Below, piece by piece: positions 2,280 through 30,462 of a DNA stretch of 41,153 bases; the stretch's first letter is position 1, and each line of letters starts with the position of its first letter. The DNA is taken from the IMG/VR virus record IMGVR_UViG_3300045988_161654; one strand, 5' to 3'. Source of the DNA: a virus. The position numbers and the translations under genes are program-made. Under the pieces are notes generated by a model. The model was not told the DNA's origin, made no database searches, and worked only from the letters and a program-made list of their open reading frames with translations.

Positions 2280-2289
2280 TCATCTCACC

Positions 2290-2938: not shown

Positions 2939-3009
2939 ATTAAATTCCTCCATTTCATTATTTTAAATAAAAAAAATAAGCCCCAGTATGAACTATACTG
3001 AGGCACTTT

Positions 3010-3459: not shown

Positions 3460-3462
3460 GGC

Positions 3463-4337: not shown

Positions 4338-4338
4338 A

Positions 4339-4677
4339 TTACATAATCTCCAATTTAACATAGTTTACAGAACCATCAGGATTCCTTGCTTTAGTACCTT
4401 GATATATTTCTCTAGTTTCGCCAAATATCGTAGCTTTTCCGCCAGATATTACAGCTAAATCAGGAGCAATATCTTTGGAAAATAAAGCTACAGCATTTAT
4501 TTGTATAATTACTTTCTCAGTAGTTAATACTCTTTTTGCTTTATCTTGATAATTACATTTAAAGTCTCCTTCTAATGCAATTATAGGACTGCCCTCTTCT
4601 GATACTCCTTCACTATATAAAACAAGGTGTATGTCAGTTTTGCAATCTTTTTCTCTAACTAAACTAGGATAATTCAT
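4339..4677 (-). CDS. Head closure / head-tail adaptor protein (position-based)
   Basis: 112-aa ORF, tightly packed between the connector and joining genes. Confidence 0.4.
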   Translation of the reverse strand: MNYPSLVREKDCKTDIHLVLYSEGVSEEGSPIIALEGDFKCNYQDKAKRVLTTEKVIIQINAVALFSKDIAPDLAVISGGKATIFGETREIYQGTKARNPDGSVNYVKLEIM

Positions 4678-4678
4678 C

Positions 4679-5062
4679 TTAATACCTCACATTTCTACAA
4701 GTTAATCCTGTTTGAGCCAATAAACAATAATAGTCCTTTGGTATAGCAACCCCATTTTGTATTTGAACATTCCAACTTTTGCCGAAGCTCATTGATACCC
4801 CATTTATTGCATAGCTTGAAAGTGGTGTTTTTAGTATATCTGCATTTTCATATTCAAAATCAGCAAGTTTGCATACTACTTCTCTTATAATGCTTTGTTG
4901 AAATTCAGTTAAATTATCAAACTTTTTTCTAACAATTCGATTATAAGTTAAAGTATCTATATGCATACTTGCTTCTTTTATTTTTTCTTCAAATTTATCT
5001 TCAGGAATTACATCACCTTTATATGTATCTTGATAATATTTTTTATCTACATACATATTCAT
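4679..5062 (-). CDS. Head-tail connector (gp6-like)
   Basis: Follows the capsid gene. The N-terminus (YVDKKYYQDTYKG...) resembles gp6-like connector proteins. Start set to ATG 5062, 9 nt after a GGAG. Confidence 0.5.
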   Translation of the reverse strand: MNMYVDKKYYQDTYKGDVIPEDKFEEKIKEASMHIDTLTYNRIVRKKFDNLTEFQQSIIREVVCKLADFEYENADILKTPLSSYAINGVSMSFGKSWNVQIQNGVAIPKDYYCLLAQTGLTCRNVRY

Positions 5063-5077
5063 ATATATCAACTCCGA

Positions 5078-5980
5078 TTAGCTTTGTTTTTCAATATAGA
5101 ATTGAATAGCATCGTGTTTTTTATTAAAGATGAATACATCTTCAAATGATTCTTCAAAATATGTCCATTTACCTTGTGATAATGAACTTGGAGCACCTAA
5201 TTGTGCAAAGTCATAAGCAATTACTGGTATAACTGCAGATGGATGAACTAATATCATTTTTACATTTTTTGCATCACTAGCAACTTCAAATCCATCATCT
5301 GTAAAGTTATATGCAGATTTCATTGCAGTAGTTGGAACACCAATTACTTCAACTTCTCCTATTCTGTCTAATGATCTAGCAACAGTTGTATCTTGTGCTG
5401 ATAGATTTCTAGCAGCTTCTTTTGCTGTATCTATTAATGTTTTTGTATATGTATCAGCATATAGTAATCTTCCTGCTGCAGGAACTCTTTTTTCATCCAT
5501 TTTGTCCATCATTGCATCAAACTTTGTTAATACATTTGCTAATGTAAGAACATCGCCTTCAGTAATAGTTTCTATTTCATTTTTTAATTTATATAATGCT
5601 GTGATCATTTCAGCATCCATTTCAGGAAATTTTTCCTCTTCATTCATAGTTTTAGTTATATTTTGTATTGTTGCAACATGGTTTGTTTCATCAATATCTC
5701 TTGGATGGATAAGTGTATCCCATGTTCTATGAGTTTTTAGTTTCTTTGGTTCTTCATCATTATTGAAGTTTCTTCCAAAAGTACCTATTGAATCCCTATC
5801 TCCATTTTTTCTACCTTTAACAGATAATGATGGTAGAATTACTGTATCGTTTCTTAAAAATTTAACATCTGGTTTTACTGCACTCCATAATGCACCAAAA
5901 AATAAAGTGTATGGATATGCTTGAGCTAAAGCTTGTGAATATTCTTTAGCATAATTTAATCCTGTTTTTTCAAATGCCAT
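5078..5980 (-). CDS. Major capsid protein
   Basis: 300-aa ORF directly after the scaffold gene, with a strong RBS. Typical size and position. Confidence 0.7.
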   Translation of the reverse strand: MAFEKTGLNYAKEYSQALAQAYPYTLFFGALWSAVKPDVKFLRNDTVILPSLSVKGRKNGDRDSIGTFGRNFNNDEEPKKLKTHRTWDTLIHPRDIDETNHVATIQNITKTMNEEEKFPEMDAEMITALYKLKNEIETITEGDVLTLANVLTKFDAMMDKMDEKRVPAAGRLLYADTYTKTLIDTAKEAARNLSAQDTTVARSLDRIGEVEVIGVPTTAMKSAYNFTDDGFEVASDAKNVKMILVHPSAVIPVIAYDFAQLGAPSSLSQGKWTYFEESFEDVFIFNKKHDAIQFYIEKQS

Positions 5981-5992
5981 AATAATTACCTC

Positions 5993-6607
5993 CTATTTTT
6001 TTCTAGGTCTTACACCAGTAAATCCAAAATCAAATACTCCATTATTTGAATTTGTACCATTATTAGTGTCAGCACCAACTGTTATCCCAACGACTCCTTG
6101 TACTTGTTTTTTTAGTCCTGGAATATCATCAACGACCTTTTGTAGTGCTACTTTTAATGTGTCTTCTTGAATCTTTCCATCTTTACCCATACAATTATTT
6201 AAATCTGCCATTTTCAATAAATATGGCATTGTCTTAATATCAACATTTAAATCATCGACATAGTCATAAGCTTTCTTTTCTATTTCTAGTCTTTGTTTTT
6301 CTAGTTGTATTTTTTGTAAAGATGCTTGAACTTCAGACAATTCCTTGTTTTGAGCATTAGCTTGATTTGCTTTTTCCGTTTTAAATGCACTTATTGCACT
6401 TTCCATTTCTTCAGCACTCAAACCTTGCTTTTGAAAATAACTTTTTAATATGCTATCTTCTGTTTTTACATTTCTTGCATCAATCATTTCTTGAATTTTG
6501 TTATAATCAATAGCATTAGATGCTTGATTTGTATTGTTGTTTTGCCCTGTAGTGTTTTGGGCATTTGGATTAGAATTTACATTGTTATTTGCTTCATTTC
6601 CTTCCAT
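5993..6607 (-). CDS. Capsid scaffolding protein
   Basis: Low-complexity N/Q-rich N-terminus followed by coiled-coil sequence, immediately upstream of the capsid gene. Confidence 0.65.
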   Translation of the reverse strand: MEGNEANNNVNSNPNAQNTTGQNNNTNQASNAIDYNKIQEMIDARNVKTEDSILKSYFQKQGLSAEEMESAISAFKTEKANQANAQNKELSEVQASLQKIQLEKQRLEIEKKAYDYVDDLNVDIKTMPYLLKMADLNNCMGKDGKIQEDTLKVALQKVVDDIPGLKKQVQGVVGITVGADTNNGTNSNNGVFDFGFTGVRPRKK

Positions 6608-6715
6608 TTCACTACCTCCTACTTTTTTAAGTCTTGAATGACTATTAATAAATTACACATGCTTTTATTCTCATCAGTGTTTGGAGCATATAAAAAAGAG
6701 CCTTTCAGCTCTTAA

Positions 6716-7030
6716 TTAATCTGTATATAAACTTCTTTGTAATTCTTCGTATCTTTCTTTTGATACTTTATATTTTCCTTCTCCTGCTTTTACAGGCTTG
6801 TTTCCTTCTATTTTTTCATCTTTGATAAATACATCTTTGGGATTATACACAATATTTGCATCGTATTTATCTCTAAACATTTCTATTACTGTTACAACTT
6901 TCTCTTTTGAAACACCTTCATCTTCAGATGTTTTTTCTTCTACTATTTCTTCTGTAGTTGTTATTTCTTCATTTTTTTCTACTGCTTCATTTACATCCTC
7001 TTCTTTTAATTCTTTTTTGTTTTTAGCCAT
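6716..7030 (-). CDS. Acidic hypothetical protein
   Basis: 104-aa E/K-rich ORF with an RBS. No motif recognised. Confidence 0.4.
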   Translation of the reverse strand: MAKNKKELKEEDVNEAVEKNEEITTTEEIVEEKTSEDEGVSKEKVVTVIEMFRDKYDANIVYNPKDVFIKDEKIEGNKPVKAGEGKYKVSKERYEELQRSLYTD

Positions 7031-7042
7031 TTTATTTACCTC

Positions 7043-7333
7043 CTATAATATTTTTATAAATTTTCCATATTCTTGAGCAACTTGAAATTCTATTCGACAG
7101 CCTCTAGCCTGTTGCCAGCCTAGCATAAATATAACTCCATCTACTTTTCCTATATATCTTATTGACTGAGACAGCATATATATTGCTACATCTTCATCTG
7201 TTGGTGCATTTTCAAATACCGTATCTACCACTTCATGTCCTTCTGCTTCCAACTTCAATATTAGTTCAGCTCTTTCTGCTCTTATTTGTTCATTTGTTTT
7301 CCCTCGCATAGGTTGACTTATCATTAATTTCAT
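7043..7333 (-). CDS. DUF4406 / nucleoside 2-deoxyribosyltransferase-like protein
   Basis: MKLMISQPMRGK...GWQQARGCRIEF pattern recalled from the DUF4406 family. Start set to ATG 7333 after an AAGGAGGG RBS. Confidence 0.45.
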   Translation of the reverse strand: MKLMISQPMRGKTNEQIRAERAELILKLEAEGHEVVDTVFENAPTDEDVAIYMLSQSIRYIGKVDGVIFMLGWQQARGCRIEFQVAQEYGKFIKIL

Positions 7334-7347
7334 ACTTTTCCCTCCTT

Positions 7348-8538
7348 TCACTCATCATAAAATTGTGCTTGACTATTGCTTTTAAATCTTTCTTTGTAAT
7401 TTTGCCAAGCTATTCTTTTATTGTGATATTTTTCAATATTTTCTTTATCTGTACTTCCAAGTTCAAGTCTGGAATATTTATCAATATTTCTTTCTATATA
7501 GTTTAGTTTTTGTTCTTTTATGTAATTTTGTCTTTTAATTTCCAGTTGTTCCTCTGTAGGTGGTGTTGGTCTGGTATTAATACCTGGAAAATAAGTTACT
7601 GTCGTATCCTTACAATTTGGATGAAATAATTTTTCCTTAACTGCTGCACTTAACAAAGGATATCCAGTTTCTTTGCTTTCCGCTTCTATTCCTCCACTCC
7701 ATACATCATCAATAAAAACTTTTCCTTGGAACTTAATGCAATAAGGACATCCTCCTCCACGATTAGGAACTAGAACTGTATGTACTCCCCATTCATTTCT
7801 TTTTGTTCCTTCGCCTTGTAAGTATGCCCTTTTATTGGCTGTTCTTATTGCCATTTCAGCATAAGATGAAATATTTACCATTGCACCATTTGCATATTCA
7901 ATATTATTTATTCCTTTTGCCAGAAAATCCTTTGTAGCCATATCAACTGCTTGTTGAACAGTCCCTGACCCTGTATTTGCATATACCTGTGCTTGGTATA
8001 TTGTTTTTCTATATTGATCATTGGTGTACCTCAATATTGACATTTCTGCTTTTTTAAAATTATCTGTTGTTTCATTTATTAGTGCTTTTAATTTTCTTTC
8101 ATTTATTTTAAAAAAGCTTCCTTCCGTTTGATTCACTAAATCATATATTCTGGTCAATTGTTTCTTTTTTATTCTTTTATTTTTACTGGTCTTGTAAATA
8201 TGCCACATTTTATTTATTTTTTTATTGCTACTACTAAAATTTCCTTGCTTTATTGCTTCTAATATTACATTTTCTTGTTTTAATTTTCCATTTTCATAAC
8301 TTTTCTTTATTAGTTCTTCAATGTCTTCATTTATAGTAGAAAAATCATTTTTAAATAATTCCTTATTATCTTTTTTAAATTTTTCAAGTGATTTTAATTG
8401 TTCTGTTTGCCAAGCACTCCAATTCATATCTTCCATTTTTTCCTCTTCTAAGTGCCTTGTAAGATTTCTTTTCATTGATTCAATTAAGGTGGTTTCTATT
8501 CTTTGAAATGCTTGTTTAATATCATATTCATTATTCAT
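7348..8538 (-). CDS. Head morphogenesis protein (SPP1 gp7 / Mu F-like)
   Basis: 396 aa, directly after the portal gene. C-terminal region carries a GGGCPYC motif typical of F-like minor head proteins. Confidence 0.65.
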   Translation of the reverse strand: MNNEYDIKQAFQRIETTLIESMKRNLTRHLEEEKMEDMNWSAWQTEQLKSLEKFKKDNKELFKNDFSTINEDIEELIKKSYENGKLKQENVILEAIKQGNFSSSNKKINKMWHIYKTSKNKRIKKKQLTRIYDLVNQTEGSFFKINERKLKALINETTDNFKKAEMSILRYTNDQYRKTIYQAQVYANTGSGTVQQAVDMATKDFLAKGINNIEYANGAMVNISSYAEMAIRTANKRAYLQGEGTKRNEWGVHTVLVPNRGGGCPYCIKFQGKVFIDDVWSGGIEAESKETGYPLLSAAVKEKLFHPNCKDTTVTYFPGINTRPTPPTEEQLEIKRQNYIKEQKLNYIERNIDKYSRLELGSTDKENIEKYHNKRIAWQNYKERFKSNSQAQFYDE

Positions 8539-10093
8539 TTACAACTTTCTCCTGGTCTTTTTTATCTTCTTTTTGACCACTTTCTTGATTTTCTACTTTG
8601 GTATCGACATTTGTGTCGGTACCATTATCGTTCATTTCTAAATCATAGTTCACAGCTGGCTCTTCAATATCAATAATTCCCTGTTCTGCCTTTAACCTTG
8701 CAACTTCTAGTGTTTTCCACTCTTCGTCTTTGTCATCTTTGTATAATTCCTCAACACTTGCTTCAATTGACATTATTCCACCTTGTTTTCCTTTAGCAAC
8801 TGTTTCAACTTGTGCCTCAAAAGATGGATTTGCATATTCTCCAAATTTCAATGATACATCAATATCCGCTGGAATAGGCTTTTTATCTATTTGAGCTTTT
8901 GACTTCAAAACCATATTTATAACTTTTGGTATAAAATCAGTTAATGTATCTATGATTAAACCTCTAGTATATAAAGTGGTCTTTTCTTTTTCCCTTTGTG
9001 CTTCAGCATTATCGAGTTTCTTATTATCAATTCCAAGTGTACTTGGACTAACTATTCCTTGTAAACACAAATCTAAAAATGTGATATAAGATTGCAAATA
9101 ATTCTCTGTTGGAATTTCTGCTTGCTCTATGTCGATTTTATCCTGGTTATTTTCATTCATAGCTGCATCTGCTTTTATAAACTTATTGTCGAATGGATTA
9201 CTTTCATAGATGGCCAATGTTCCATCTTCTGGGTCTTTTGGAATCATACTTTCAGGAATATATTTTATTGCTCTGCCTGCTCTAACCGCTTCTACCCATT
9301 GAGAAATTATTTCATCCAAACTATCAAAAGAGTCATATTTTCCATCGAAAATTGACTCTCCTCTACCTTTATATTTTGCTGATTCGTTAAACATCAATGG
9401 CACTGCCCACATAACAGTTTTATCAAAATAAAGATTTTTTAATTTTGACAATCCTTGAACTGTCTTCAAAGGTACTTCTTTATCATCTTTTTTTAATACA
9501 TATTCTATATACCCCATACCATAATGCTCTTCTAATAAATAAGTTGTATTGTTTTCTTCGTGAAATGATTTAAAAACAAGTTCTACTAAACGACCTCTTT
9601 TATATATAAAATCAATTTTTGAACCATCAACCCATTCTAATATTGCTTTATCAGAAATTTCTGGGTCATAATTTATTTTAATTGCACCATCTCCAATATA
9701 TAAAGCCTCACCTAAAAGAGTCTTTATCATTTTAGTATCAAACTTATTTTCTTCATTGACAGCTTTCCAATATTCATCTTCAACATCGTCACCACCATAA
9801 TCAGTCATAACCGTATTTATAATTGTTTTTATCATAAGTTTTGGTAGTCCTGAATGTGATTTTTTCATTCTTATTTCTGCTGTTTGTGAAGCTCCCCAGA
9901 AAGTATCTTCTGCATAAGGAAGTTGTCCATAAAATTCAGATAATTCTCTACTATCGCCTCTATACCATATTTTATTTCTTATGCAATTCGCTTGAAAATC
10001 CATGTTTTCATTAACTACAAATGTTTGACCTTGTGCTGGTCTGATATCTAACCACGATTTAATCATATCTTTCACTCTTTCTCCAAATTTCAT
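8531..10093 (-). CDS. Portal protein
   Basis: 520 aa, immediately downstream of the large terminase, with an acidic C-terminus. Confidence 0.75.
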   Translation of the reverse strand: MKFGERVKDMIKSWLDIRPAQGQTFVVNENMDFQANCIRNKIWYRGDSRELSEFYGQLPYAEDTFWGASQTAEIRMKKSHSGLPKLMIKTIINTVMTDYGGDDVEDEYWKAVNEENKFDTKMIKTLLGEALYIGDGAIKINYDPEISDKAILEWVDGSKIDFIYKRGRLVELVFKSFHEENNTTYLLEEHYGMGYIEYVLKKDDKEVPLKTVQGLSKLKNLYFDKTVMWAVPLMFNESAKYKGRGESIFDGKYDSFDSLDEIISQWVEAVRAGRAIKYIPESMIPKDPEDGTLAIYESNPFDNKFIKADAAMNENNQDKIDIEQAEIPTENYLQSYITFLDLCLQGIVSPSTLGIDNKKLDNAEAQREKEKTTLYTRGLIIDTLTDFIPKVINMVLKSKAQIDKKPIPADIDVSLKFGEYANPSFEAQVETVAKGKQGGIMSIEASVEELYKDDKDEEWKTLEVARLKAEQGIIDIEEPAVNYDLEMNDNGTDTNVDTKVENQESGQKEDKKDQEKVVNE

Positions 10094-11526
10094 TTTCTTA
10101 CTCCTATCTTATCTACAAAAGGAATCCAGCTATATTGACAACTATTAACCATGTGATCGTTTGCATCTTCTGGTTCATTGTCTTTGTCCTCTTTCCAGCT
10201 GTAGACATCTAATTCATTACAATAGTTTTCACAGGTATCAACAATAAAATAACACTCATCCTTGAACCAACCAAGTTGAGTGTTTATTCTGTCTATTATC
10301 TCCATTTTTGCTTTCCAAGCATTATTAAATATGTATATACAACCAGTTTTTCTCTTATATTTTGCAAATTCTTTTATTGTTGCTTGGTCTGCACTATCAA
10401 TAAATGTGTTTTTTGCCAATCCCCACTCTTTTCTGTTTCTCTCTAAGAAATCAATAAAATTCTTTACTGTATCGCTAGGTGCAAGTGGTTCTTCTAAATC
10501 AGCATTGTTATAAACTCTTTCATCTAGTAAAATATATTTTCCTTTGTTAGTTATACCTGCAAAAGACATTGCAATAGTATCAGGGCTTAAAGAACTATAA
10601 GATGTATCTAATGCTGCCGTAAATTGTATAAAATGTTCATTTGTTTCTTTTTTAGTTTTATATTTTATATTTAACTGTATAACTTCCGCTTCGTTTTGAT
10701 TTTTTAAATATTGTTTTGCCTCTTCTTTCGTTATACAATGTTTTCTTCTATCAAAATTAAGAAAAACAAGCCCTGTTGACTTGCCTCGTAAACCTTTTAT
10801 TTTATTTTTCCATAATTTTGTACCTACAGGAACAGAATCAATAATCTTCTTTTTCTTTTCTGGTGTTAAACTTTTATTATGGTCAAAAGTAAAATACCAC
10901 CAAGTCCAATCATCCGTTTGAGGTTGATTTAACATTTCAAGCAACTCAAGTGGAGCATCATTTTTATATTTATCTATTGGCCTTGCATGATTAACAAATT
11001 GTGAATAACATTCTTTGTTTGGATCATCTGGATTCATTGTACATAACCTGTAGTCTGCCCTCATAAATGCTTCTCTAACAAATTCCATATCTGCTATGTT
11101 GAACTCGTCTATAAATAATCCATAACATTGGCCACCTAATGCTTTCTTCCATCTTGCTTTGTTGTCATATCCTAAAACATAAATAATTTTATTGCCTTTT
11201 GGTGTATGATAAACAATATGAGGTAGTTTGATATTCTTTGCACCATTTGAGTGATATTCTATCGCTCCACCTTTCTCATAATCTCCAAATATATCTATCA
11301 AACCATGGTCTGAATTAATTATGTTTTTTTCTATTGTTCCTAAGTCTAATCCAGCAATAATGCTTGGTTTTGAAGAATTATCATTTGCAACCTTAAACAT
11401 AAACTTTGGAATACCAACTGTTGTTTTTCCTGCAAATGTTGTTCCTTCCAGAAATTCTGTACTTGCATCATATTTTAAAAAGTCAATATATTTTTCTGAT
11501 AGTGGAAATGCTTCATCTTCATTCAT
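10090..11526 (-). CDS. terL: Terminase large subunit
   Basis: Walker A-like GTTFAGKTT and Walker B-like LFIDEF. C-terminal nuclease-type acidic residues. Start ATG 11526 follows AGGTGGTGG. Confidence 0.85.
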   Translation of the reverse strand: MNEDEAFPLSEKYIDFLKYDASTEFLEGTTFAGKTTVGIPKFMFKVANDNSSKPSIIAGLDLGTIEKNIINSDHGLIDIFGDYEKGGAIEYHSNGAKNIKLPHIVYHTPKGNKIIYVLGYDNKARWKKALGGQCYGLFIDEFNIADMEFVREAFMRADYRLCTMNPDDPNKECYSQFVNHARPIDKYKNDAPLELLEMLNQPQTDDWTWWYFTFDHNKSLTPEKKKKIIDSVPVGTKLWKNKIKGLRGKSTGLVFLNFDRRKHCITKEEAKQYLKNQNEAEVIQLNIKYKTKKETNEHFIQFTAALDTSYSSLSPDTIAMSFAGITNKGKYILLDERVYNNADLEEPLAPSDTVKNFIDFLERNRKEWGLAKNTFIDSADQATIKEFAKYKRKTGCIYIFNNAWKAKMEIIDRINTQLGWFKDECYFIVDTCENYCNELDVYSWKEDKDNEPEDANDHMVNSCQYSWIPFVDKIGVRK

Positions 11527-12169
11527 TTGCACCACCACCTAATTGCCTGTTTATACTTTCTAATAATGGATTAGTTGCAACAACATTTAAATTTAATGTT
11601 TTATCCTCACCATCATTTATCTTATTTAAACTTTCTATACATTTTCTTTTGGCTTCTTGAACCCTTGTAAGTCCCTCTTCTATTCTTTGAATTAAATTTA
11701 TTGTCGGTTCTGCTTCAGTTATTGTTTCTGTTTCCGACTTACTATTTTTCTTTCTTATAAAATCTATTGTCATATCTTTTTGTTCATTTAATTTTTTTAT
11801 TCGTTTTAACATTCTTTTTTCTCTAATAGTAAGAATCTTATATTCTTCCATCAATAACTGCTCTACATCATCAACTTGATAATTTTCATATAAATCTAAT
11901 TCGTCTTCATCTAATACATCTTTATATATATTTTCATATTCTCCTGTAGTAACAGCATTTTTATTTCCTATTTCTGCACCTGTTCCACCTTTGTTTCCTA
12001 GTGCATTTTTATTTCCCATTTGTGCTTTGCTTTTTGTCCTGGTTAATTTATATTTATATACTATACTTCGTAATTCTGCTTGTGTAATGTTGTATTTTTG
12101 CTTTATGTCATTGTATTTCATACCTTGTAAATAATCATTTTTTATTTGTTCTATTTTTGCTTCTGTCAA
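11519..12169 (-). CDS. terS: Terminase small subunit
   Basis: N-terminal HTH-like segment and repeated GNKNA motifs typical of small terminases. Directly upstream of terL. Confidence 0.7.
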   Translation of the reverse strand: MTEAKIEQIKNDYLQGMKYNDIKQKYNITQAELRSIVYKYKLTRTKSKAQMGNKNALGNKGGTGAEIGNKNAVTTGEYENIYKDVLDEDELDLYENYQVDDVEQLLMEEYKILTIREKRMLKRIKKLNEQKDMTIDFIRKKNSKSETETITEAEPTINLIQRIEEGLTRVQEAKRKCIESLNKINDGEDKTLNLNVVATNPLLESINRQLGGGANE

Positions 12170-12188
12170 TACAAATCACCCACCTCCA

Positions 12189-13379
12189 TTACTTTTCTAG
12201 AATTGCTTTTTCTCCAGTTAGGTTTTCCCATCTTTTTATTATTACATCACAATATTTAGGATCAAGTTCCATTGTATAGCACCTTCTTTGTGTTTGTTCT
12301 GCTGCTATCAATGTCGAACCACTTCCACCAAATAAATCAAGTATTAAATCATTTTCTTTACTTGAATTTTTAATTAGATATACTAACAAATCAACAGGTT
12401 TCATAGTTGGATGTTCTGCATTTCTTGAAGGCTTGTCAAATTCTAAAACTGTACTTTGTTTTCTATTATCTACAAAATAATGTCCTGCTCCTGGTTTCCA
12501 TCCGTATAAAATAGGTTCGTGTCTCCATTGATAATCTTGTCTACCCATAACAAACGTATTCTTTACCCATACCAAACATTGTGCTAATTTAAAACCACAC
12601 GATTTAAAAGCATTTCTAAAGTTTAATCCTTCTGTATCTGCATGAAATACATAAGCTGAACCTCCATATTTTATTGAATCAAACATATTTTTAAATGAGT
12701 CTAATAGAAAATTATAAAATTCTGTTTCACTCATATTGTCATTTTCAATTTTTAATGCTTCTGATGTTTTTCCTTCATAATCCACATTGTATGGTGGATC
12801 AGTAAGAAGCATATCCGCTTCTTGGCTATTCATAAGGTGCATAACATCTTCTTTTTGTGTACTATCACCGCACATCAACCTATTTTTACCTAATATCCAA
12901 ACATCGCCTCTTTTTGAAATTGGTTCTTCAATTTCATCTAATGCCTGGTCTAAATCAAAATCATCTTCTTTTGACCCTGTTATGTCTTTTAGTATTTCGT
13001 CAACTTCATCAAAACTAAAACCTGTGATATCCATATCAATATCCGTTTGCTTTAATTCTGCAAGCAATTCTTCAAGTTTATCATTATCCCAATCGCCACT
13101 AATCTTATTTAATGCAATATTTAGTGCCTTTTCTTTTTTTTGGTCTAAATCCACAACAACACATTCAACTTCAGTATAACCTAGTTCTTTCAATACTTTT
13201 AATCTTTGATGGCCACCTATAACTGTCATATTTGAATTAACTATTACAGGTGCTACATACCCAAATTCAGTAATGCTTTTCTTTATTTTTTGATACTCTT
13301 CGTCTTCTGGTTTTAAATCTTTTCTTGGATTGTATTCCGCTGGTTTTAGACTTTCTATTTTTATTTTTTGAATATTCAT
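12189..13379 (-). CDS. ParB-like nuclease domain fused to DNA methyltransferase (DPPY type)
   Basis: ParB motifs (IESLKPAEYNPR, GGHQR). Methyltransferase motifs DPPY and FGGSGS. Start set to ATG 13379, 7 nt after AAGGAG. Confidence 0.8.
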   Translation of the reverse strand: MNIQKIKIESLKPAEYNPRKDLKPEDEEYQKIKKSITEFGYVAPVIVNSNMTVIGGHQRLKVLKELGYTEVECVVVDLDQKKEKALNIALNKISGDWDNDKLEELLAELKQTDIDMDITGFSFDEVDEILKDITGSKEDDFDLDQALDEIEEPISKRGDVWILGKNRLMCGDSTQKEDVMHLMNSQEADMLLTDPPYNVDYEGKTSEALKIENDNMSETEFYNFLLDSFKNMFDSIKYGGSAYVFHADTEGLNFRNAFKSCGFKLAQCLVWVKNTFVMGRQDYQWRHEPILYGWKPGAGHYFVDNRKQSTVLEFDKPSRNAEHPTMKPVDLLVYLIKNSSKENDLILDLFGGSGSTLIAAEQTQRRCYTMELDPKYCDVIIKRWENLTGEKAILEK

Positions 13380-13478
13380 TTTCATACTCCTTAGAACAAC
13401 TGTTTTCATATCTGCAACATTTGCACTTTCTTAACATACATCTTCCCAAATCCATAGATTTACCTCTTTTGTAATTAT

Positions 13479-13552
13479 TGGTTGCGGACATAGGATTCGA
13501 ACCTCGTCTAGGAGTTATGAGCCCCTTGTGCTTCCATTGCACCATCTCCGCA
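13479..13552 (-). tRNA. tRNA-like element with CAT anticodon (Met/Ile2 type), imperfect cloverleaf
   Basis: The minus strand reads GCGGAGA TG GTGC AATGGAA GCAC A AGGGG CTCATAA CTCCT AGA CGAGG TTCGAAT CCTAT GTCCGCA A CCA. D arm, anticodon arm and GTTCGAATC T-loop are good. The T-stem has only 3 Watson-Crick pairs, and the acceptor stem has a G/G mismatch or register problem. Confidence 0.55.
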
Positions 13553-13556
13553 ATAT

Positions 13557-13580
13557 AAAAAAGCCACCGCTTCTGGTGAC
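13557..13580 (-). terminator. Rho-independent terminator candidate
   Basis: The minus strand reads GTCACC AGAAGC GGTGGC followed by TTTTTT. The stem is 6 bp with one G-U pair. It lies 5 nt upstream of the tRNA-like element. Confidence 0.5.
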
Positions 13581-13617
13581 TTCTCGAAAGGAAAAAATAT
13601 GAACAACTAAAGGCATT

Positions 13618-13669
13618 GTATTACAGTAATACCAATTATAATTATAACAGATTGTTTTTTGCCATTCTA
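13618..13669 (-). promoter_or_regulatory. Extended -10 promoter (TGTTATAAT, tandem TATAAT) with a 15-bp perfect palindrome just downstream
   Basis: On the minus strand: TAGAAT (13664..13669), a 17-nt spacer, then TGTTATAAT (13641..13649). The palindrome GTATTACTGTAATAC lies at 13618..13632. Confidence 0.45.
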
Positions 13670-13700
13670 CGGACAAAATATGTAAATTTTATAGACAAAA

Positions 13701-14126
13701 TTAAGACATTTTGTTTTTATTGTATTCTTTTTGCATAATTCTTATTGATCTATCAATAGTTTTTTGTATAGCACCATATCCTCTGTCTTTTTTAGTTGCA
13801 ATCTCTTCAATACTCATCATTTGATAATATCTCATATCAATAATGTCTTGGTTATACTTTTTTAGAGTTTTTACTAAATCTTCTACAACTTTTATTTTGT
13901 TTTCAGTCTTTTCAATATACCTTTCTTTTTTTCTAATTTTGTCTTCCCTATTTATAATTTCCTCTTCTATATTTGAAGCAGTATAACCCTTAGGCTTTGG
14001 CATACCATCTAAGTTTGCACTTTTTAAGTCTCCAATTTCATTTTGCAAGTCTTTTATTTCTCCTTGTACTATTGTTATACTTGCTTTAATAGAATTATAA
14101 TTTTCTAATACTTCCTGCACATTCAT
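13701..14126 (-). CDS. Late transcription regulator candidate (sigma-70 region 4-like HTH; ArpU/RinA/DUF1492-like)
   Basis: Coiled-coil N-terminus. C-terminal segment (DIIDMRYYQMMSIEEIATKKDRGYGAIQKTIDRSIRIM) resembles a region-4 HTH. It occupies the classic position upstream of the packaging genes. Start ATG 14126 lies 8 nt after AGGAGG. Confidence 0.55.
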   Translation of the reverse strand: MNVQEVLENYNSIKASITIVQGEIKDLQNEIGDLKSANLDGMPKPKGYTASNIEEEIINREDKIRKKERYIEKTENKIKVVEDLVKTLKKYNQDIIDMRYYQMMSIEEIATKKDRGYGAIQKTIDRSIRIMQKEYNKNKMS

Positions 14127-14138
14127 CTTTTGCACCTC

Positions 14139-14303
14139 CTAAAACTTAAATATAGCAAATGTAAGCATTATGCTAACAACTATTTCAATTAAATTCATAA
14201 ATCTATTTTTGTTATCTTTATATTGGTTATTCATTCCATCAACAATTTTTGAAACTGCATAGAACCCCATAAAAAACACAAAAATTGCTTTAATTATAGC
14301 CAT
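14139..14303 (-). CDS. Small membrane protein (54 aa, below ORF-track cutoff)
   Basis: My translation is MAIIKAIFVFFMGFYAVSKIV...IEIVVSIMLTFAIFKF. A GGAGGTG RBS sits 6 nt upstream. The stop overlaps the RBS of the next gene. Confidence 0.45.
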   Translation of the reverse strand: MAIIKAIFVFFMGFYAVSKIVDGMNNQYKDNKNRFMNLIEIVVSIMLTFAIFKF

Positions 14304-14343
14304 ATTTAACACCTCCTACTCATTAGTTATTCGAGTTTGTTTT

Positions 14344-14544
14344 TTATTTTGGGAAAGAAAGGATGTCTCCTTTACTTTCCTTTTGAAGTATATTTATTTC
14401 TTCTGGTTTAACTCTGTGAATTATAACTTCCACATCCTTGTTGCTATTTATTAATTGAACTTCATATATATTTGCATCTTGATGTTTCATCATATTTAAT
14501 ATAATTCCTTTTCTACCTCTAATTTCTACTTCCACATTTAACAC
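14344..14544 (-). CDS. Hypothetical protein
   Basis: 66-aa ORF overlapping the stop of the upstream gene, consistent with translational coupling. Confidence 0.4.
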   Translation of the reverse strand: MLNVEVEIRGRKGIILNMMKHQDANIYEVQLINSNKDVEVIIHRVKPEEINILQKESKGDILSFPK

Positions 14545-14831
14545 CTCTTTTCAAAATATTCTCTAATACATTGTTCACACTCGCCTAAGCTCATTGGATC
14601 ACAATTATTATGCCTTTTTGTTTTGCAACATATAGTTTCTTCATTATCTAGGGATGCTATATATTGACACATAGCATCTATAATCTTATTTTGTTTTTGC
14701 AACATACCTTTGTATGTTTTATATTTTTGTCTATCTGTTTTCATATATATACATTTAGAACATATTTCTTTAGCAACCTTATCTCGTGCTGCATAACCTT
14801 TATAAAAATCGTCATTTTCTATATTATTCAT
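14538..14831 (-). CDS. Cysteine-rich hypothetical protein
   Basis: 97-aa ORF containing nine Cys residues (several in CxxC-type spacing). No family recognised. Confidence 0.4.
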   Translation of the reverse strand: MNNIENDDFYKGYAARDKVAKEICSKCIYMKTDRQKYKTYKGMLQKQNKIIDAMCQYIASLDNEETICCKTKRHNNCDPMSLGECEQCIREYFEKRC

Positions 14832-14833
14832 GT

Positions 14834-15331
14834 TTACTTTTCCTCCACTTCAACATAAGAAAAATTATAATGTTTTGCAATTAAATATGATGTATAGCCA
14901 TCAATTAAATTATTTTGATTATCTACAACAATTGGAACTTCAAAATTTTGATTCGTATCAAAATATGTATATCTTCTTTTAAGCTTATCCTTATTTGGTG
15001 CTTTAAATTTTCTAGGTATTTTTATATCTGATATTTTTATTATTTTTTTCTTTTTATTAATATGTTTTAATAAATCATTTATCATATTGTCTTGTATTTT
15101 AATATGTTCTTCTTGTAGATCTACTATCACATCCTTTCCTTTTATCAATTTTGCATTACAATATTCTATTACTGCAATATTTCCCCATAACAAAGCAACT
15201 ATTATCCAAACAAATTCTTTTTCAACAATTGCCATAATTATTTCAAAAATAACCATTAAAATATAAAAAGCTATCATTCTTTTATTTCTTTTATCTAATT
15301 TAGTCATTTCTTTCCAAGTTTTATTATCCAT
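14834..15331 (-). CDS. Membrane-anchored protein with ParB N-terminal-like domain
   Basis: Two N-terminal hydrophobic helices. C-terminal segment ISDIKIP...PIVVDNQNNLIDGYTSYLIAKHYNFSYVEV follows the ParB/Srx pattern, with DGYTSY replacing DGHHR. Confidence 0.45.
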   Translation of the reverse strand: MDNKTWKEMTKLDKRNKRMIAFYILMVIFEIIMAIVEKEFVWIIVALLWGNIAVIEYCNAKLIKGKDVIVDLQEEHIKIQDNMINDLLKHINKKKKIIKISDIKIPRKFKAPNKDKLKRRYTYFDTNQNFEVPIVVDNQNNLIDGYTSYLIAKHYNFSYVEVEEK

Positions 15332-15336
15332 TATTT

Positions 15337-15654
15337 TTATTCCTCCTTCAATAATTCTTTTAAAGTTCCAATTTTCAACGAAATGTCATCGCACATTTCT
15401 CCATCAAACTCTCCATCCTGCCATTCTGCATGTTCTCTACCTGCATAAAAATCAAACTCTTTTTCCAATTCTTTTATTTTATTTTTAATTTTTTCTTTAC
15501 TTATATAATTTTTATCAATAAATTTTTGCAACTTTTTTTCAAAATTTTTATTTAATGTACTTACCGCACTAACTCCATCAGGATTGCTCTTAAAAGATGT
15601 ATTCCAATCACTTTTATTATCAGCTTCTGGAAATTTTATATCTTTTATTTCCAT
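15337..15654 (-). CDS. Hypothetical protein
   Basis: 105-aa ORF in the early operon, tightly packed. Confidence 0.4.
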   Translation of the reverse strand: MEIKDIKFPEADNKSDWNTSFKSNPDGVSAVSTLNKNFEKKLQKFIDKNYISKEKIKNKIKELEKEFDFYAGREHAEWQDGEFDGEMCDDISLKIGTLKELLKEE

Positions 15655-16092
15655 TTAAACCACCACCCATTTTAACTTTTGTTGTTCTTCTGTTGGATTC
15701 CATTGTTTCCATATATCTTCACTATATTTAATTAACCTCATTTTATTTTTATCATATTCTGTAATACAATATTCATTAGCTTTAAATCTATCATTAAAAC
15801 CACATAGCAAATTTACCAAATCTTCCATAGGATTTCCTGTACTTTTTATCGGTCTTGCATAAATTCCATAAGTTCTATTCAAATTCTCATTAGTTTCAAA
15901 TACTGCACATACATCGAATGTTGCTATTCCACTTAAAAAGTGCATTGCCTCTTCTGGTTTATATTCTTCTAAGTTTAGGAAACAAAAACCAATTGAATTT
16001 GTTCTTCCTTCATGTTTTTTATTATTTTTCAAAGTAAAACTATTTCTATACTTTTCAAATTCTACTTTTGACATAAATCTAAATACTTTCAT
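15655..16092 (-). CDS. Hypothetical protein
   Basis: 145-aa ORF in the early operon. Confidence 0.4.
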   Translation of the reverse strand: MKVFRFMSKVEFEKYRNSFTLKNNKKHEGRTNSIGFCFLNLEEYKPEEAMHFLSGIATFDVCAVFETNENLNRTYGIYARPIKSTGNPMEDLVNLLCGFNDRFKANEYCITEYDKNKMRLIKYSEDIWKQWNPTEEQQKLKWVVV

Positions 16093-26198: not shown

Positions 26199-26438
26199 TT
26201 ATTTTCCTCCTATCAAAACTTTTTTCAATAATTCGAGTTTTGTTTCTGCTTGTATTCTTTTTTCTTTTTCACTTTCGTATAGTTCTCGGCTTACTGTATT
26301 ACCGCCAATTTTTATTCTAAAATGGCCACCATCTGATTGTTTATACTCAAGTTCATTGTTGTCTATCATTTTTTTTACTTCTTTGTATCCTATATGAAAT
26401 CGTTTCATATATTCCGTTAAACTAATCCATTCCTCCAT
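26199..26438 (-). CDS. Excisionase/MerR-like HTH DNA-binding protein
   Basis: EWISLTEYMKRFHIGYKEVKKMIDNNELEYKQSDGGHFRI resembles excisionase-family HTH_17 domains. Confidence 0.5.
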   Translation of the reverse strand: MEEWISLTEYMKRFHIGYKEVKKMIDNNELEYKQSDGGHFRIKIGGNTVSRELYESEKEKRIQAETKLELLKKVLIGGK

Positions 26439-27782: not shown

Positions 27783-27809
27783 AACCACTTTGAAAAGTGA
27801 TTACTTTTT
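27783..27809 (+). terminator. Rho-independent terminator candidate
   Basis: AACCACTT TGAA AAGTGATT (7 of 8 pairs) followed by ACTTTTT. Confidence 0.45.
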
Positions 27810-27882
27810 GTATTATATACAAAAAACCTTCATTTTTCAAGTGTTTATATAAAATAAATTAAAGAAAAATGGAGGTATTTTC

Positions 27883-29034
27883 ATGGCAGTAAAAACTAAC
27901 TGCGTCAAAAATGGAGTTCCTTATTTTAGGATTCATAGAAAAATAAATGGAAAATATGAAGACTTTTATGGAAAAAACAAATCTGATGCAGAAGAACAAT
28001 ATTACGAAAGAAAAAAAGAAGCTGAAATAGGTGTAATACAAACAAAAGATGTAACCACAAAAATTTTATTACATAAATGGCTTTTCTCCATTAAAACACA
28101 TGATTTAAAAGATTCTTCTTTAGAATCTTATGAAAGCACTTACAGAAATCATATAAAACCATTTGAGTTTTCTGATATACCTATAAAAAGTATATCTAGT
28201 ATTGTTGTCCAGGATTTCTATAATTCACTTTTCAAAAAAGAAAGATCCTCAGAGACTATTGAAGATGTTCATAAATTGTTGAGGCAATTTTATGGATATT
28301 GTGAAAAAGAAGGTTTTATTGGAAAAAATCCATGTAACAAAGGATTAGTAAAAATTCCTAGGGATAAAGATATGGATGTTGATTCTATTATAGAAAAGCA
28401 AAAACTACCTTTTAAATACTTCAAAGATGATGAAATAGAATTATTAAGAAAAGCATTTATTGGAAACAAATACGAAAAGGTGGTGGACTTTGCTCTTGGT
28501 ACTGGAATGAGAGAAGGCGAAATTGTAGGTTTGAAATGGATTAATCTTAATTTTGATAATAAAGAAATCTATGTAAAAAATAATACTACACGTGTCGCAG
28601 TATTTAACGAAGAAGGACAAAAAACTGGATATAAAACCAAAGATGGTACACCAAAAACTGAAAGTAGTATTGATATTATACCTATGTCAGATTTTATCTA
28701 TAATTTATTAATTAATCTTCCTAGAACATCCGAATATGTATTTACCGCTAATGGGCATCAAATAGATAAAAAGGATTTGCAAAAAGTATTTAAGAAAATA
28801 ATAGAAAGTCTAATGAAAGAAAATGATGGATTTGTATATAGAGTATTTCATGATTTAAGACATACTTTTGCTGTAATGTTATTATTAAATGGTGTAGATT
28901 TATATACAATTATGAAGTTATTAAGACATAAAAAAATTTCATCAACTGAAATGTATCTTGCAGTTTTACCCAAAACAAAAGATACATCTGTAAACAAATT
29001 AAACTATTTATTCAAAACTAAAGTGGGAAATTAG
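27883..29034 (+). CDS. int: Tyrosine integrase
   Basis: Catalytic-domain pattern of R, then HDLRHTF (H-x-x-R), then LLRHKKISSTEMYLAV (H...Y). 383 aa, adjacent to attP. Confidence 0.85.
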   Translation: MAVKTNCVKNGVPYFRIHRKINGKYEDFYGKNKSDAEEQYYERKKEAEIGVIQTKDVTTKILLHKWLFSIKTHDLKDSSLESYESTYRNHIKPFEFSDIPIKSISSIVVQDFYNSLFKKERSSETIEDVHKLLRQFYGYCEKEGFIGKNPCNKGLVKIPRDKDMDVDSIIEKQKLPFKYFKDDEIELLRKAFIGNKYEKVVDFALGTGMREGEIVGLKWINLNFDNKEIYVKNNTTRVAVFNEEGQKTGYKTKDGTPKTESSIDIIPMSDFIYNLLINLPRTSEYVFTANGHQIDKKDLQKVFKKIIESLMKENDGFVYRVFHDLRHTFAVMLLLNGVDLYTIMKLLRHKKISSTEMYLAVLPKTKDTSVNKLNYLFKTKVGN

Positions 29035-29041
29035 TGGGAAA
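29022..29041 (+). repeat. Two direct AGTGGGAAA repeats (putative integrase arm-type sites, P arm)
   Basis: Copies at 29022..29030 and 29033..29041. The same 9-mer is repeated on the other side of the core. Confidence 0.45.
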
Positions 29042-29051
29042 AAGCAAAAAT

Positions 29052-29084
29052 AGCAAGGTGTTACAAATCTCTGTAACCCTTGCT
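29052..29084 (-). terminator. Strong hairpin terminator following the tuf-like terminal codons (also downstream of int)
   Basis: On the minus strand, AGCAAGGGTTACA GAGATT TGTAAC(A)CCTTGCT followed by ATTTTTGCTTTTT. Confidence 0.6.
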
Positions 29085-29097
29085 ATTACTGTATTTA

Positions 29098-29139
29098 TTA
29101 TTCAATGATGTCAGCAACAACACCTGAACCAACTGTTCT
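29098..29139 (-). other. attP core candidate: 3-prime end of an EF-Tu (tuf) gene, 13 codons plus stop
   Basis: The minus strand reads AGA ACA GTT GGT TCA GGT GTT GTT GCT GAC ATC ATT GAA TAA, which translates to RTVGSGVVADIIE-stop. This matches the conserved EF-Tu C-terminus (...GGRTVG(A/S)GVV...). Confidence 0.6.
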
Positions 29140-29240
29140 GTTCTAATATTATTATACATTTTCAAACACTCTTGAAATGCTTATATTTCAACATTTATTA
29201 TTTTTATATTTTCAAACATTTTTAATCGTTTTTGTACTAG

Positions 29241-29268
29241 AGTGGGAAAAAAGTGGGAAAGTGGGAAT
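29241..29268 (+). repeat. Three direct (A)GTGGGAA(A/T) repeats (putative arm-type sites, P-prime arm)
   Basis: Copies at 29241..29249, 29252..29260 and 29260..29268. Confidence 0.45.
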
Positions 29269-29366
29269 TATCTATTCCAATTAAATCCATCTTGAACACC
29301 CTTTTTATAAATTTTATTAGAATATTTTTTAAATATATGTAAAAGTATTTTGTCAATTAAATTCAA
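29268..29366 (-). CDS. Possible small basic ORF (32 aa, TTG start)
   Basis: GGAGGAGG RBS 7 nt before TTG. Sequence is MNLIDKILLHIFKKYSNKIYKKGVQDGFNWNR. An extended -10 (TGATATAAT, 29411..29419) lies upstream. Confidence 0.25.
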   Translation of the reverse strand: MNLIDKILLHIFKKYSNKIYKKGVQDGFNWNR

Positions 29367-29435
29367 CTTATTACCTCCTCCTTTTATTTATTGGAGATAT
29401 CTCTATTTTTATTATATCATATTATGTAAATTTTA

Positions 29436-29458
29436 ATAACTACTTTACAGCATAGTTA
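29436..29458. promoter_or_regulatory. Inverted-repeat motif ATAACTA-N9-ATAGTTA, copy a
   Basis: Arms are identical to the copies at 29740..29762 and 34203..34225. It lies 19 nt upstream of a minus-strand TATAAT (29411..29416). Confidence 0.45.
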
Positions 29459-29538
29459 TTTTCTTTCAAAACCCTTGCTATGTCTAATTTACAAAATTCG
29501 ACTTTTTTCTACAAAATACCACAAATTACCATTTTTCA

Positions 29539-29706
29539 CTATTTTAAATCATCAATTAAATTATCTATATATTCACTTGCTTTATCTTGCTGAGCCAATA
29601 ATTCATATTTGACATTCTCTATCAAATCTATTGCATCATCATATTTTTTATTTTCTATTGTACTTTTTATATAATCTAATTTTTGAATTAAGTCTTCTGT
29701 ATCCAT
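29539..29706 (-). CDS. Small acidic helical protein (55 aa, below ORF-track cutoff)
   Basis: MDTEDLIQKLDYIKSTIENKKYDDAIDLIENVKYELLAQQDKASEYIDNLIDDLK. AAGAGGTG RBS. An extended -10 (TGATATAAT) lies upstream. Confidence 0.45.
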   Translation of the reverse strand: MDTEDLIQKLDYIKSTIENKKYDDAIDLIENVKYELLAQQDKASEYIDNLIDDLK

Positions 29707-29739
29707 TTCAACACCTCTTTGTATAGATTATATCATTTT

Positions 29740-29762
29740 ATAACTATTTTGTAAAATAGTTA
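29740..29762. promoter_or_regulatory. Inverted-repeat motif ATAACTA-N9-ATAGTTA, copy b (11-bp perfect palindrome arms)
   Basis: ATAACTATTTT GT AAAATAGTTAT. It sits between the divergent small ORF (29706, minus) and the HTH gene (29841, plus), 7 nt from the minus-strand TGATATAAT. Confidence 0.5.
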
Positions 29763-29840
29763 TTTTATGACCAAGTTGCTTTTAGGCTAGTTAAAATAAA
29801 TGTAAGTTTGTTCTAAAATATCTATATAGGAGGTGATTAA

Positions 29841-30086
29841 ATGATTTGTATAAATGTAGATCAATTATTAAAAAAACAAAAGAAAAGTAAATATTGGTTT
29901 GTAAAAAATATGGGTGGTAGCTATCAGTCCTTATCTAATTTAATAAATAACACAACTACAAGTATTCATTTTGAAACACTTGAAAGAATTTGTGAAATTT
30001 TAGATTGCGAACCTGGAGATATAATTATCAGAAAAAAAGGAAAAAGGAGGAAAGATAAAAATGAGCAAACTACTAAAGCAGTATAA
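29841..30086 (+). CDS. Cro/C1-type HTH regulator (HTH_26/YozG-like)
   Basis: SKYWFVKNMGGSYQSLSNLINNTTTSIHFETLERICEILDCEPGDII matches the HTH_26 pattern. Basic tail. Confidence 0.65.
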   Translation: MICINVDQLLKKQKKSKYWFVKNMGGSYQSLSNLINNTTTSIHFETLERICEILDCEPGDIIIRKKGKRRKDKNEQTTKAV

Positions 30087-30462
30087 TGAATTAAAACAAA
30101 AAGATAAAAACAAAGTCTATTTATTTAAAGTTGGAATCTTTTATAACATAATAAATGAAGATGCTAAAATCATCAACGAGAAACTAGGCCTAAAGCTCAC
30201 AGATTTGGGGCCTAATATTTCAAAATGTGGCTTTCCTATTTCTCAATTAGATAAATATATCATACTACTAAATAAAATGAAAATAAAGTACAAAATTATA
30301 GATAATTTACCTAATAATTCTAATATCAATGACTATATGAAAAATATTGAAATTAAGAAAATACTAAATAAAATTACAACTACGGATATGGATAATATAA
30401 CTTTTCATCAAGCCTTCGATATTTTACTTGATATTCAAACTAAATTAAAAAATATAGAGTAG
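30061..30462 (+). CDS. Stand-alone MutS domain I-like protein (133 aa)
   Basis: LLKQYNELKQKDKNKVYLFKVGIFYNIINEDAKIINEKLGLKLT...CGFPISQLDKYIILLNKMKIKYKIID aligns by eye to the MutS N-terminus (MQQYLxLKxxxPxxLLFxRxGDFYELFxxDAxxxxxxLxIxLT...AGxPxxxxxxYxxxLxxxGxxVAICEQ). Confidence 0.6.
   Translation: MSKLLKQYNELKQKDKNKVYLFKVGIFYNIINEDAKIINEKLGLKLTDLGPNISKCGFPISQLDKYIILLNKMKIKYKIIDNLPNNSNINDYMKNIEIKKILNKITTTDMDNITFHQAFDILLDIQTKLKNIE

Follow-up and report, generated by a model that had tools for sequence, protein, structure and literature searches.

A temperate phage of uncultured gut Clostridia that appears to integrate into the 3′ end of the elongation factor Tu gene

A tuf gene end on a phage genome

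What use is the end of a bacterial elongation factor gene to a phage that carries no other part of that gene? The question is raised by a stretch of viral DNA of 41,153 nucleotides (nt), here called the window (IMG/VR record IMGVR_UViG_3300045988_161654), in which the gene for a tyrosine integrase (int) lies beside the last codons of tuf, the gene for elongation factor Tu (EF-Tu). The answer proposed here, to which we give a probability of about 0.92, is that positions 29022-29267 are the phage attachment site (attP) of a circular temperate phage that integrates into the 3′ end of tuf in AT-rich, uncultured Clostridia of the gut. The sequences compared came from public gut metagenome contigs, species-representative genomes and IMG/VR, and loci are cited by number (L001 and so on). 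The argument turns on the following features.

27883..29034, + strand: tyrosine integrase gene int, 383 amino acids (aa), convergent with tuf once the phage is integrated
29095..29100, − strand: double stop TAA TAA, which closes tuf in the lysogen
29101..29128, − strand: gene-restoring segment, consisting of the third base of a Gly codon and the last nine EF-Tu codons (SGVVADIIE)
29129..29139, − strand: crossover region, AGAACAGTTGG in the tuf sense, the sole stretch identical in every pair of attP and bacterial attachment site (attB)

On the minus strand, 29095-29139 reads RTVGSGVVADIIE and then two stops, the coding part being 29101-29139; the GG that closes the crossover region starts the Gly codon that the restoring segment completes. 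The match to host tuf breaks off exactly at 29139|29140, with no tuf sequence upstream of it, and an in-frame TAG lies two codons upstream of the tail's Arg codon. The fragment is untranslated in the free phage. A first-pass annotation of the window had claimed both that this strand encodes an EF-Tu C-terminus and that no upstream tuf sequence accompanies it, and on both points it was right. The two ends of the window share an exact overlap of 119 nt (1-119 = 41035-41153), a length equal to the assembler k. The window, which corresponds to ENA contig ERZ27229728 k119_309755, is therefore circular and complete, with a unique length of 41,034 bp, and represents the free form of the phage. Since it is a circular phage genome, the site with the tuf tail is attP.

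Natural recombination products

In the assembly collection, 139 indexed blocks contain the exact integrase protein of the window. At six loci, each from an independent assembly (L001, L002, L003, L005, L007 and L008), a gene on the opposite strand starts 64 nt after int. At four of these (L001, L002, L003 and L005) the neighbour is an EF-Tu gene of 399-400 aa with all three Pfam domains, beyond which lie fusA, rpsG and rpsL, as in an rpsL-rpsG-fusA-tuf operon; the contigs of L007 and L008 end inside the gene found at the same 64-nt position. At two further loci, L004 and L006, the sequence after int is the right arm of the phage itself; L006 is the contig of the window. Alignment of the free phage with the lysogens shows the same sequence up to 29139 and unrelated sequence from 29140.

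The second junction was reached through a 55-aa open reading frame (ORF) at 29539-29706, which itself has only sub-threshold Pfam matches. Here the phage right arm leads into the AGAACAGTTGG block and from there into host DNA. The host genes past this junction (attR) are plsX, acpP and rnc at L013, L015, L017 and L018; at L014, plsX and acpP are followed by an RNase III gene, and the remaining loci have other neighbourhoods. L002 and L015 lie on one scaffold and supply both junctions of a single prophage, with their cores on the same strand and about 41.4 kb apart. The empty site is also represented: L024 comes from the same species as L002 and L015, and its flanks are 98.5-99.5% identical to theirs. 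A scan of the species-representative genomes with the 24-nt core found at least 120 loci, nearly all of them tuf 3′ ends of AT-rich Clostridia, and in L024 and at least 100 other tuf genes the core lies 13 codons before the stop. The four sites are composed as follows.

attB: host left flank; core GAT ATA ATC; host right flank
attP: phage left flank; core GAC ATC ATT; phage right flank
attL (the int-proximal junction): host left flank; phage-type core variants; phage right flank
attR: phage left flank; host-type core variants; host right flank

As read from the assembled sequences, this pattern is evidently the outcome expected of reciprocal site-specific recombination inside the block. The resemblance of the phage tail to EF-Tu goes beyond chance because natural attL, attR and attB sequences exist. 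The attB lies within the tuf coding sequence near its 3′ end, and all four att sites were seen. Host tuf genes do share sequence with the phage fragment, and the lysogens carry their prophages at that position in tuf.

Other integrases adjacent to tuf were found at 44-80% identity to that of the window. One scaffold (ena:ERZ28615699 scaffold_200) carries the same integrase, of 64% identity, twice and about 36 kb apart (L165 and L166). The surroundings of one copy resemble attP, and tuf adjoins the other, an arrangement consistent with two prophages in tandem and an internal attP.

Localization of the crossover

The block shared by phage and host is 44 nt long, with 29 identical positions. In the species represented by L024 the first 29 nt of the block are identical, so that the exchange can be localized only within those. 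Clostridium sp. CAG:245 provides a tighter limit. Its attB (L053) is AGAACAGTTGGATCAGGAGTTGTTTCTGATATAATTGAA, which departs from attP at core nt 12, 18 and 25, among other sites. The CAG:245 lysogen L003, with a flank 98.4% identical to L053, is phage-type from core nt 12 onward, and L020, an attR with CAG:245 downstream DNA, is host-type from core nt 12 onward. The exchange therefore falls within AGAACAGTTGG, core nt 1-11, the left limit being the similarity break at 29139|29140. The whole 44-nt block was considered as the core and rejected, CAG:245 having been lysogenized despite the differences just listed. The proposal that the entire 13-codon block forms the attP core thus stands in part: the block is indeed derived from tuf, but the core is confined to its first 11 nt at most (29129-29139), and the rest is a replacement cassette.

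Within these 11 nt, the heptamer CAGTTGG at 29129-29135 is a candidate for a 7-bp overlap. In other lineages host identity starts at GTACAGTTGG (L169 against L167) or at CAGTAGG (L165 against L166), giving CAGTWGG as the common minimum. In attP, CAGTTGG is flanked by AGAACAGAA and TTCAGGTGT, which match as an inverted repeat at six of nine positions. In the window lineage the overlap may accordingly sit between inverted core half-sites; the same half-site model gives no clear fit to the sequence of the L169 lineage.

The rebuilt gene end

In the lysogens everything 3′ of the exchange in tuf, namely nine codons, TAA TAA and a hairpin, is phage DNA. The remaining 33 nt of the block, together with the terminator, are a phage replacement of the gene end and differ from the host at synonymous sites. 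The EF-Tu of lysogen L002 is identical in amino acid sequence to that of the empty site L024, and the lysogen reading frame is intact, at 399-400 aa and with its three domains, on a surrogate 3′ end. Integration into the 3′ end of tuf with restoration of the gene, as first proposed, is borne out, the lysogens carrying their prophage there and their EF-Tu being of full length. The site, its junctions, the empty site, the crossover window and the restored gene are all directly visible in these loci.

The replacement is not always silent. In CAG:245 the EF-Tu tail changes from VVSDIIE to VVADIIE in lysogen L003, and a host with the tail VVSEVIE (L033, L016, L019) is also used for integration. Across eleven phage-borne tails, codon position 3 accounts for 11 of the 14 variable sites, a bias that seems to indicate selection on the encoded peptide. 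The non-synonymous tails SEIIE and ADIIA are also found among host tuf genes, and ADILE is close to host ones.

The terminator hairpin

The replacement extends beyond the stop codons to a further feature.

29039..29091, − strand: terminator-like hairpin (stem 29045-29091, T-run 29039-29048), facing transcription from tuf

When the minus-strand RNA of 29030-29100 was folded, the hairpin had an energy of −23.1 kcal/mol (z = −5.9), and none of 200 shuffled sequences folded as well. On the tuf-sense strand the stem-loop is followed by the U-run UUUUUGCUUUUU, the form of an intrinsic terminator. A hairpin with a tuf-sense U-run is present in all lineages examined. Among 19 sequence variants of the hairpin, 6 of the 17 base pairs show compensatory changes, as in a conserved structure, and the L154 and L143 lineages have unrelated hairpins at the equivalent position.

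It might be supposed instead that the hairpin serves mainly to terminate int, or that it is a palindrome that binds a protein and does not terminate transcription. It lies 10 nt after the int stop, it escaped a terminator scan (see below), and the hairpin of L154 is T-rich on both sides. Against this, the uninterrupted U-run is found only on the tuf-sense strand, the int-sense side reading AUUACUGUAUUUAUUAUU; in empty sites the native tuf terminator occupies the equivalent position; and the stem pairs covary. We regard these roles as rather unlikely and favour termination of transcription arriving from tuf.

The origin of the hairpin is a separate matter. Of the 114 tuf 3′ ends examined, 11 have a hairpin of the family TAGCAAGG...CCTTGCTATTTT after the gene. 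Some of these 11 are free of prophage, and at least five are themselves prophage junctions or remnants. The phage hairpin could be derived from a host, or else some host tuf terminators could be derived from phages. The hairpin and T-run had been described as supplied by the phage: they are present on the tuf-sense strand as stated, but the existence of host tuf terminators of the same family qualifies their phage origin.

Several loci look like scars of past integration. At L049 (CAKPJK010000010.1, from about 1780 downwards, − strand), tuf is followed by a phage-type tail, the hairpin, two TTCCCAC repeats and the int stop, and native DNA resumes exactly at the T-run of the native terminator that its relatives L052 and L079 have. 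The locus is a fossil junction, and in this species representative the tuf terminator is phage-derived; L084, L061 and L076 look like older remnants. At L011 and L012 (about 6610-6700), a second hairpin and decayed TTCCCAC-type repeats lie beyond the orphan tuf tail at attR, evidently what is left of an element that occupied this site earlier, next to the current prophage. Further downstream, L011 carries reverse-transcriptase (RVT_1), bAvd and MutS_I genes.

The integrase and its arm sites

The integrase is a member of the tyrosine recombinase/phage integrase family PF00589, which it matches with 83 bits (cutoff 27.1), and it also matches PF14659 with 38.5 bits (cutoff 22.6). The residues R210, K258, H323, R326, H349 and Y358 are invariant across 26 homologues of 47-100% identity, and the HxLRH and Y motifs align with those of P2 integrase. 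The AlphaFold model has a predicted local distance difference test (pLDDT) score of 84.9, and the top Foldseek matches in the PDB are Tn1549 Int (E = 6e-16; target-normalised template modelling score 0.72), XerA and lambda Int (E = 3e-9). The catalytic domain above its curated threshold, the catalytic residues and the fold of the core-binding and catalytic domains are all those of a tyrosine recombinase. The modelled N-terminal domain consists of three strands (7-9, 12-21 and 24-30) and a helix (33-51), with pLDDT 73-88. The arm-binding domains of the lambda and Tn916 integrases have this shape of three strands and a helix.

Repeats that such a domain might bind flank the crossover region.

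29022-29029 and 29033-29040, + strand: two arm-type repeats AGTGGGAA in the integrase-proximal arm, in direct orientation
29241-29248, 29252-29259 and 29260-29267, + strand: three arm-type repeats AGTGGGAA in the distal arm, in the same orientation as the proximal pair

The window contains six copies of AGTGGGAA, whereas shuffling gives an expectation of 1.14, and no shuffled sequence out of 100 had as many. Five of these copies, all on the + strand, flank the site, starting at 29022, 29033, 29241, 29252 and 29260. The first proximal repeat lies inside the last int codons and the second begins in the int stop codon, whilst the distal repeats are invariant in 11 of 11 aligned sequences (the window and ten prophage right arms). 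The arrangement of two and three direct repeats about 90-130 bp from the crossover, distinct from the core, is that of a complex attP. Such a distance on either side and such an orientation are typical of the arm-type sites of lambda-type integrases.

The identity of the repeat varies among the related integrases in the following way (integrase identity to the window; arm repeat; target).

73-100%; GTGGGAA; tuf
61-64%; GTCGTTAA; tuf
46-47%; GTGATAA; tuf
44%; TGTGTTAA; tuf
about 45%; GTGGGAA; tRNA-Glu(CTC)

Each of the other lineages has its own repeat at both equivalent positions. The identities of the separate domains show what the repeat follows (residues 1-58; core-binding domain; catalytic domain).

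tRNA-Glu lineage, with the same repeats: 67-71%; 43%; 39-40%
L154, with other repeats and tuf as target: 41%; 53%; 73%

Across the five lineages, the repeat sequence tracks the N-terminal domain of the integrase and not the rest of the protein. The AGTGGGAA repeats are thus predicted to be arm-type sites bound by that domain. The five GTGGGAA copies had been noticed from the outset as possible arm sites; their number and placement are confirmed, and the comparison of lineages lends support to that interpretation.

A different reading is that some other protein, be it an excisionase, a repressor or a host factor, binds the repeats, or that the coding end of int alone constrains them. It draws on the overlap of one copy with int codons and on the failure to detect a Pfam arm-binding domain. 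However, the three copies of the far arm are intergenic, and the identity of the repeat follows the N-terminal domain in five lineages even where target and catalytic domain differ; the position and orientation of the repeats, and the modelled three-strand-plus-helix domain, also speak for arm sites. This different reading seems rather improbable.

In the tRNA-Glu lineage (L155-L158) the tRNA-Glu(CTC) gene lies about 75 nt after the integrase stop, with AAAGTGGGAA arm repeats and a hairpin. Taken with the tuf lineages, it appears to show that a single integrase family has switched its target between tuf and a tRNA gene. These cousins of about 45% identity form a separate lineage and do not contradict tuf as the target of the window phage.

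Hosts

The same phage apparently resides in several species. Over 11,215 nt (1-11215), L002 and L003 do not differ on their phage sides (100.00% identity), and L005 has 99.96% identity to each of them. The host tuf-fusA-rpsG-rpsL segments of the three loci are 82-86% identical; for L002 and L003, the host parts at 11216-15800 are 82.3% identical and essentially nothing aligns beyond. The nearest species representatives also differ, being L024, Clostridium sp. CAG:245 (L053) and L125. On these comparisons the phage would be lysogenic in at least three species: one like L024, Clostridium sp. CAG:245 and one like L125.

The core also occurs outside the Clostridia. L040, L044 and L115, single-cell genomes of Alphaproteobacteria, have the exact 24-nt tuf core and an apparent tRNA gene after tuf; no integrase match was found at these three loci. 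The presence of the core in AT-rich Alphaproteobacteria is likely to reflect shared codon usage. In L021, an alphaproteobacterial metagenome-assembled genome, EF-Tu (from 3929 downwards, − strand) continues past its usual end (…VVSEVIEGTPKREPAKNVKPAKEK…), through either a C-terminal extension or a lost stop codon.

How firmly the site is placed

Several points weigh against our interpretation of the site. The evidence consists of assembled metagenomes and natural recombination products, and all hosts are uncultured. Residues 1-66 of the integrase, which include the proposed arm-binding domain, match no Pfam family. Among the window ORFs checked with Pfam there is no convincing excisionase; the best candidate, a 79-aa ORF at 26199-26438, has only a weak, sub-threshold match to HTH_17 (E = 0.08). 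A rule-based (consensus) terminator scan of 28500-30000 returned 0 sites and so missed the hairpin. Finally, the predicted overlap leans partly on other integrase lineages, which may cut elsewhere.

Two more sweeping explanations are much weaker than those considered above. The tuf fragment might be passive baggage from one imprecise excision, with no role in integration; phages do acquire flanking host DNA, and the hairpin resembles the terminators of the 11 tuf sites mentioned, some of them prophage junctions or remnants. This is very hard to reconcile with the similarity of free phage and lysogen breaking exactly at the fragment edge in six independent contigs, with two junctions and an empty site that fit reciprocal recombination inside the fragment, and with at least four integrase lineages that keep a tuf tail with the same boundary to within 4 nt. 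Nor do we give any real credence to the phage-tuf junctions being assembly chimeras formed through the shared 44-nt sequence: all the data are short-read assemblies and tuf is conserved, and assemblers tend to have difficulty with such regions. However, the contig names carry k values (k119, k127 and k141) well above the length of the shared 44 nt (29 identical), and junction k-mers must therefore exist in the reads. The junctions recur across samples, across assemblers and in different host species. In every case the phage-type variants are found on the int side and the host-type variants on the far side, and related prophages occupy this position in species-representative genomes as well (L126; L071 and L104, which share a contig).

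Gene order of the phage

Upstream of int lie a gene for a CI-like repressor with helix-turn-helix (HTH) and S24 domains and a 70-aa ORF, whilst the endolysin and tail genes are on the opposite side of attP. Read in the tuf sense, the prophage begins with int and the repressor gene, both in antisense; the early and late genes come next and lie in sense.

Between attP and the endolysin gene, at 29841-30462 (+ strand), a gene for an 81-aa HTH_26 protein overlaps one for a 133-aa stand-alone MutS domain I protein. The pair is opposed to the late genes, in the manner of a moron cassette. Another repeated motif lies between the core and the distal arm repeats.

29158-29168 and 29208-29218, + strand: two copies of ATTTTCAAACA, 50 nt apart

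A similar motif, TTTTCAAAC, is present in the attP of L144 and L147. Very tentatively, the ATTTTCAAACA copies may be proposed as sites for an accessory protein, either an excisionase (Xis) or a host factor.

A model for integration into tuf

The target is tuf as the last gene of the rpsL-rpsG-fusA-tuf operon. In the model that best accommodates these observations, the N-terminal domain of the integrase would assemble the intasome on the five AGTGGGAA repeats, and the enzyme would recombine the AGAACAGTTGG stretch of at most 11 nt with the same sequence in the Arg-Thr-Val-Gly codons of tuf, 13 codons from its end. Integration would sever the last 9-13 or so codons of the host gene, its stop and its terminator, leaving them as an orphan at the far end of the prophage. 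The phage copy (29095-29128) and the phage's own hairpin (29039-29091) would take their place, so that EF-Tu stays of full length.

Read-through from tuf would run antisense across int and the repressor gene and then in sense into the lytic genes; it would thus oppose expression of the repressor and drive lytic functions. Most likely, then, the tuf-facing hairpin insulates the immunity region from one of the strongest promoters of the cell. This insulating role, like arm binding, terminator activity and the exact overlap, is a part of the explanation that we infer.

The phage would in this way alter both the C-terminal residues encoded by an essential gene and its terminator, leaving heritable scars. 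It offers an example of insertion at a very strong transcription unit without harm to gene or phage, achieved by bringing along a gene end and terminator. One may go further and suggest that the near-invariant RTVG codons are targeted as a strategy of host range and regulation, and not only as a safe harbour. We consider this unlikely. If it were true, a core of 11 nt would let one phage lysogenize different species or genera, as the identical 11.2 kb of prophage DNA beside tuf-fusA regions of 82% identity already suggests, and leakage from the tuf promoter could couple the stability or induction of the prophage to the translational state of the host. More generally, a conserved attB may help prophages to cross species boundaries in the gut. 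The series of integrases, with tuf or tRNA-Glu as target and four types of arm repeat, bears on how arm and core specificities evolve separately, and it is a possible source of integrases whose attB already exists in many Clostridia.

Comparison with known systems

With this phage, tuf, among the most conserved and highly expressed of bacterial genes, joins the list of phage attachment sites. In the full-text literature no report was found of tuf or EF-Tu as an attachment site for a phage or island, though tuf may well be present, unremarked, in large databases of islands. Among the 50,697 GenBank phage records, megablast of 27800-29500 and blastn of 29020-29270 gave no match. The esp island of Enterococcus faecium has been described as ‘downstream of tuf’, a position attributed to rearrangement (PMC2858755). 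A table of attachment sites published in 2025 includes tsf, icd, hlb, geh, sigK and comK among its entries, with tuf absent (PMC12540744).

The closest published case that we found is that of the Listeria phages B054 and LP041, whose target is the 3′ end of tsf, the gene for EF-Ts (PMC8303350; table in PMC12540744). B054, like the phage described here, is temperate, has a Firmicute host and inserts at the 3′ end of a gene for an essential translation elongation factor. It differs in that the gene is tsf and not tuf, the host group is another one and the reported repeat is 12 nt long (TGATAACAAAGC). Its integrase is unrelated at the level searched, tblastn having found no GenBank phage record with more than 28% identity to the window integrase.

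Coliphage 21 and the element e14 integrate in the 3′ part of icd, for which they provide an alternative gene end that yields a functional, slightly altered ORF; the icd duplication is about 165 bp long. They thus resemble this phage in inserting into the 3′ part of a protein-coding gene and carrying a copy of its end, whereas here 13 codons are replaced and a terminator is supplied along with them.

The general form of Tn1549, Tn916 and lambda Int, with the R-K-H-R-H-Y set and a three-part architecture that includes a small N-terminal domain, is shared by the window integrase, but sequence identity to them is only 14-20%. Integrases of the Tn916 type tolerate heterologous overlaps and are loose in their choice of target. 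The window integrase, in contrast, is strictly site-specific. Its logic is that of the integrases that target tRNA genes, including those of its own family's tRNA-Glu(CTC) lineage (L155-L158), where the crossover likewise lies at the 5′ edge of the shared segment and the rest restores the 3′ end of the gene. L155-L158 share with it the integrase family, the AGTGGGAA arm repeats and a hairpin after the gene; the differences are that the target is here a protein-coding gene and that the core-binding and catalytic domains are only 39-43% identical. The mechanism is thus the classical one for integrases that use the 3′ end of a gene, but for tuf as the target no earlier report was found.

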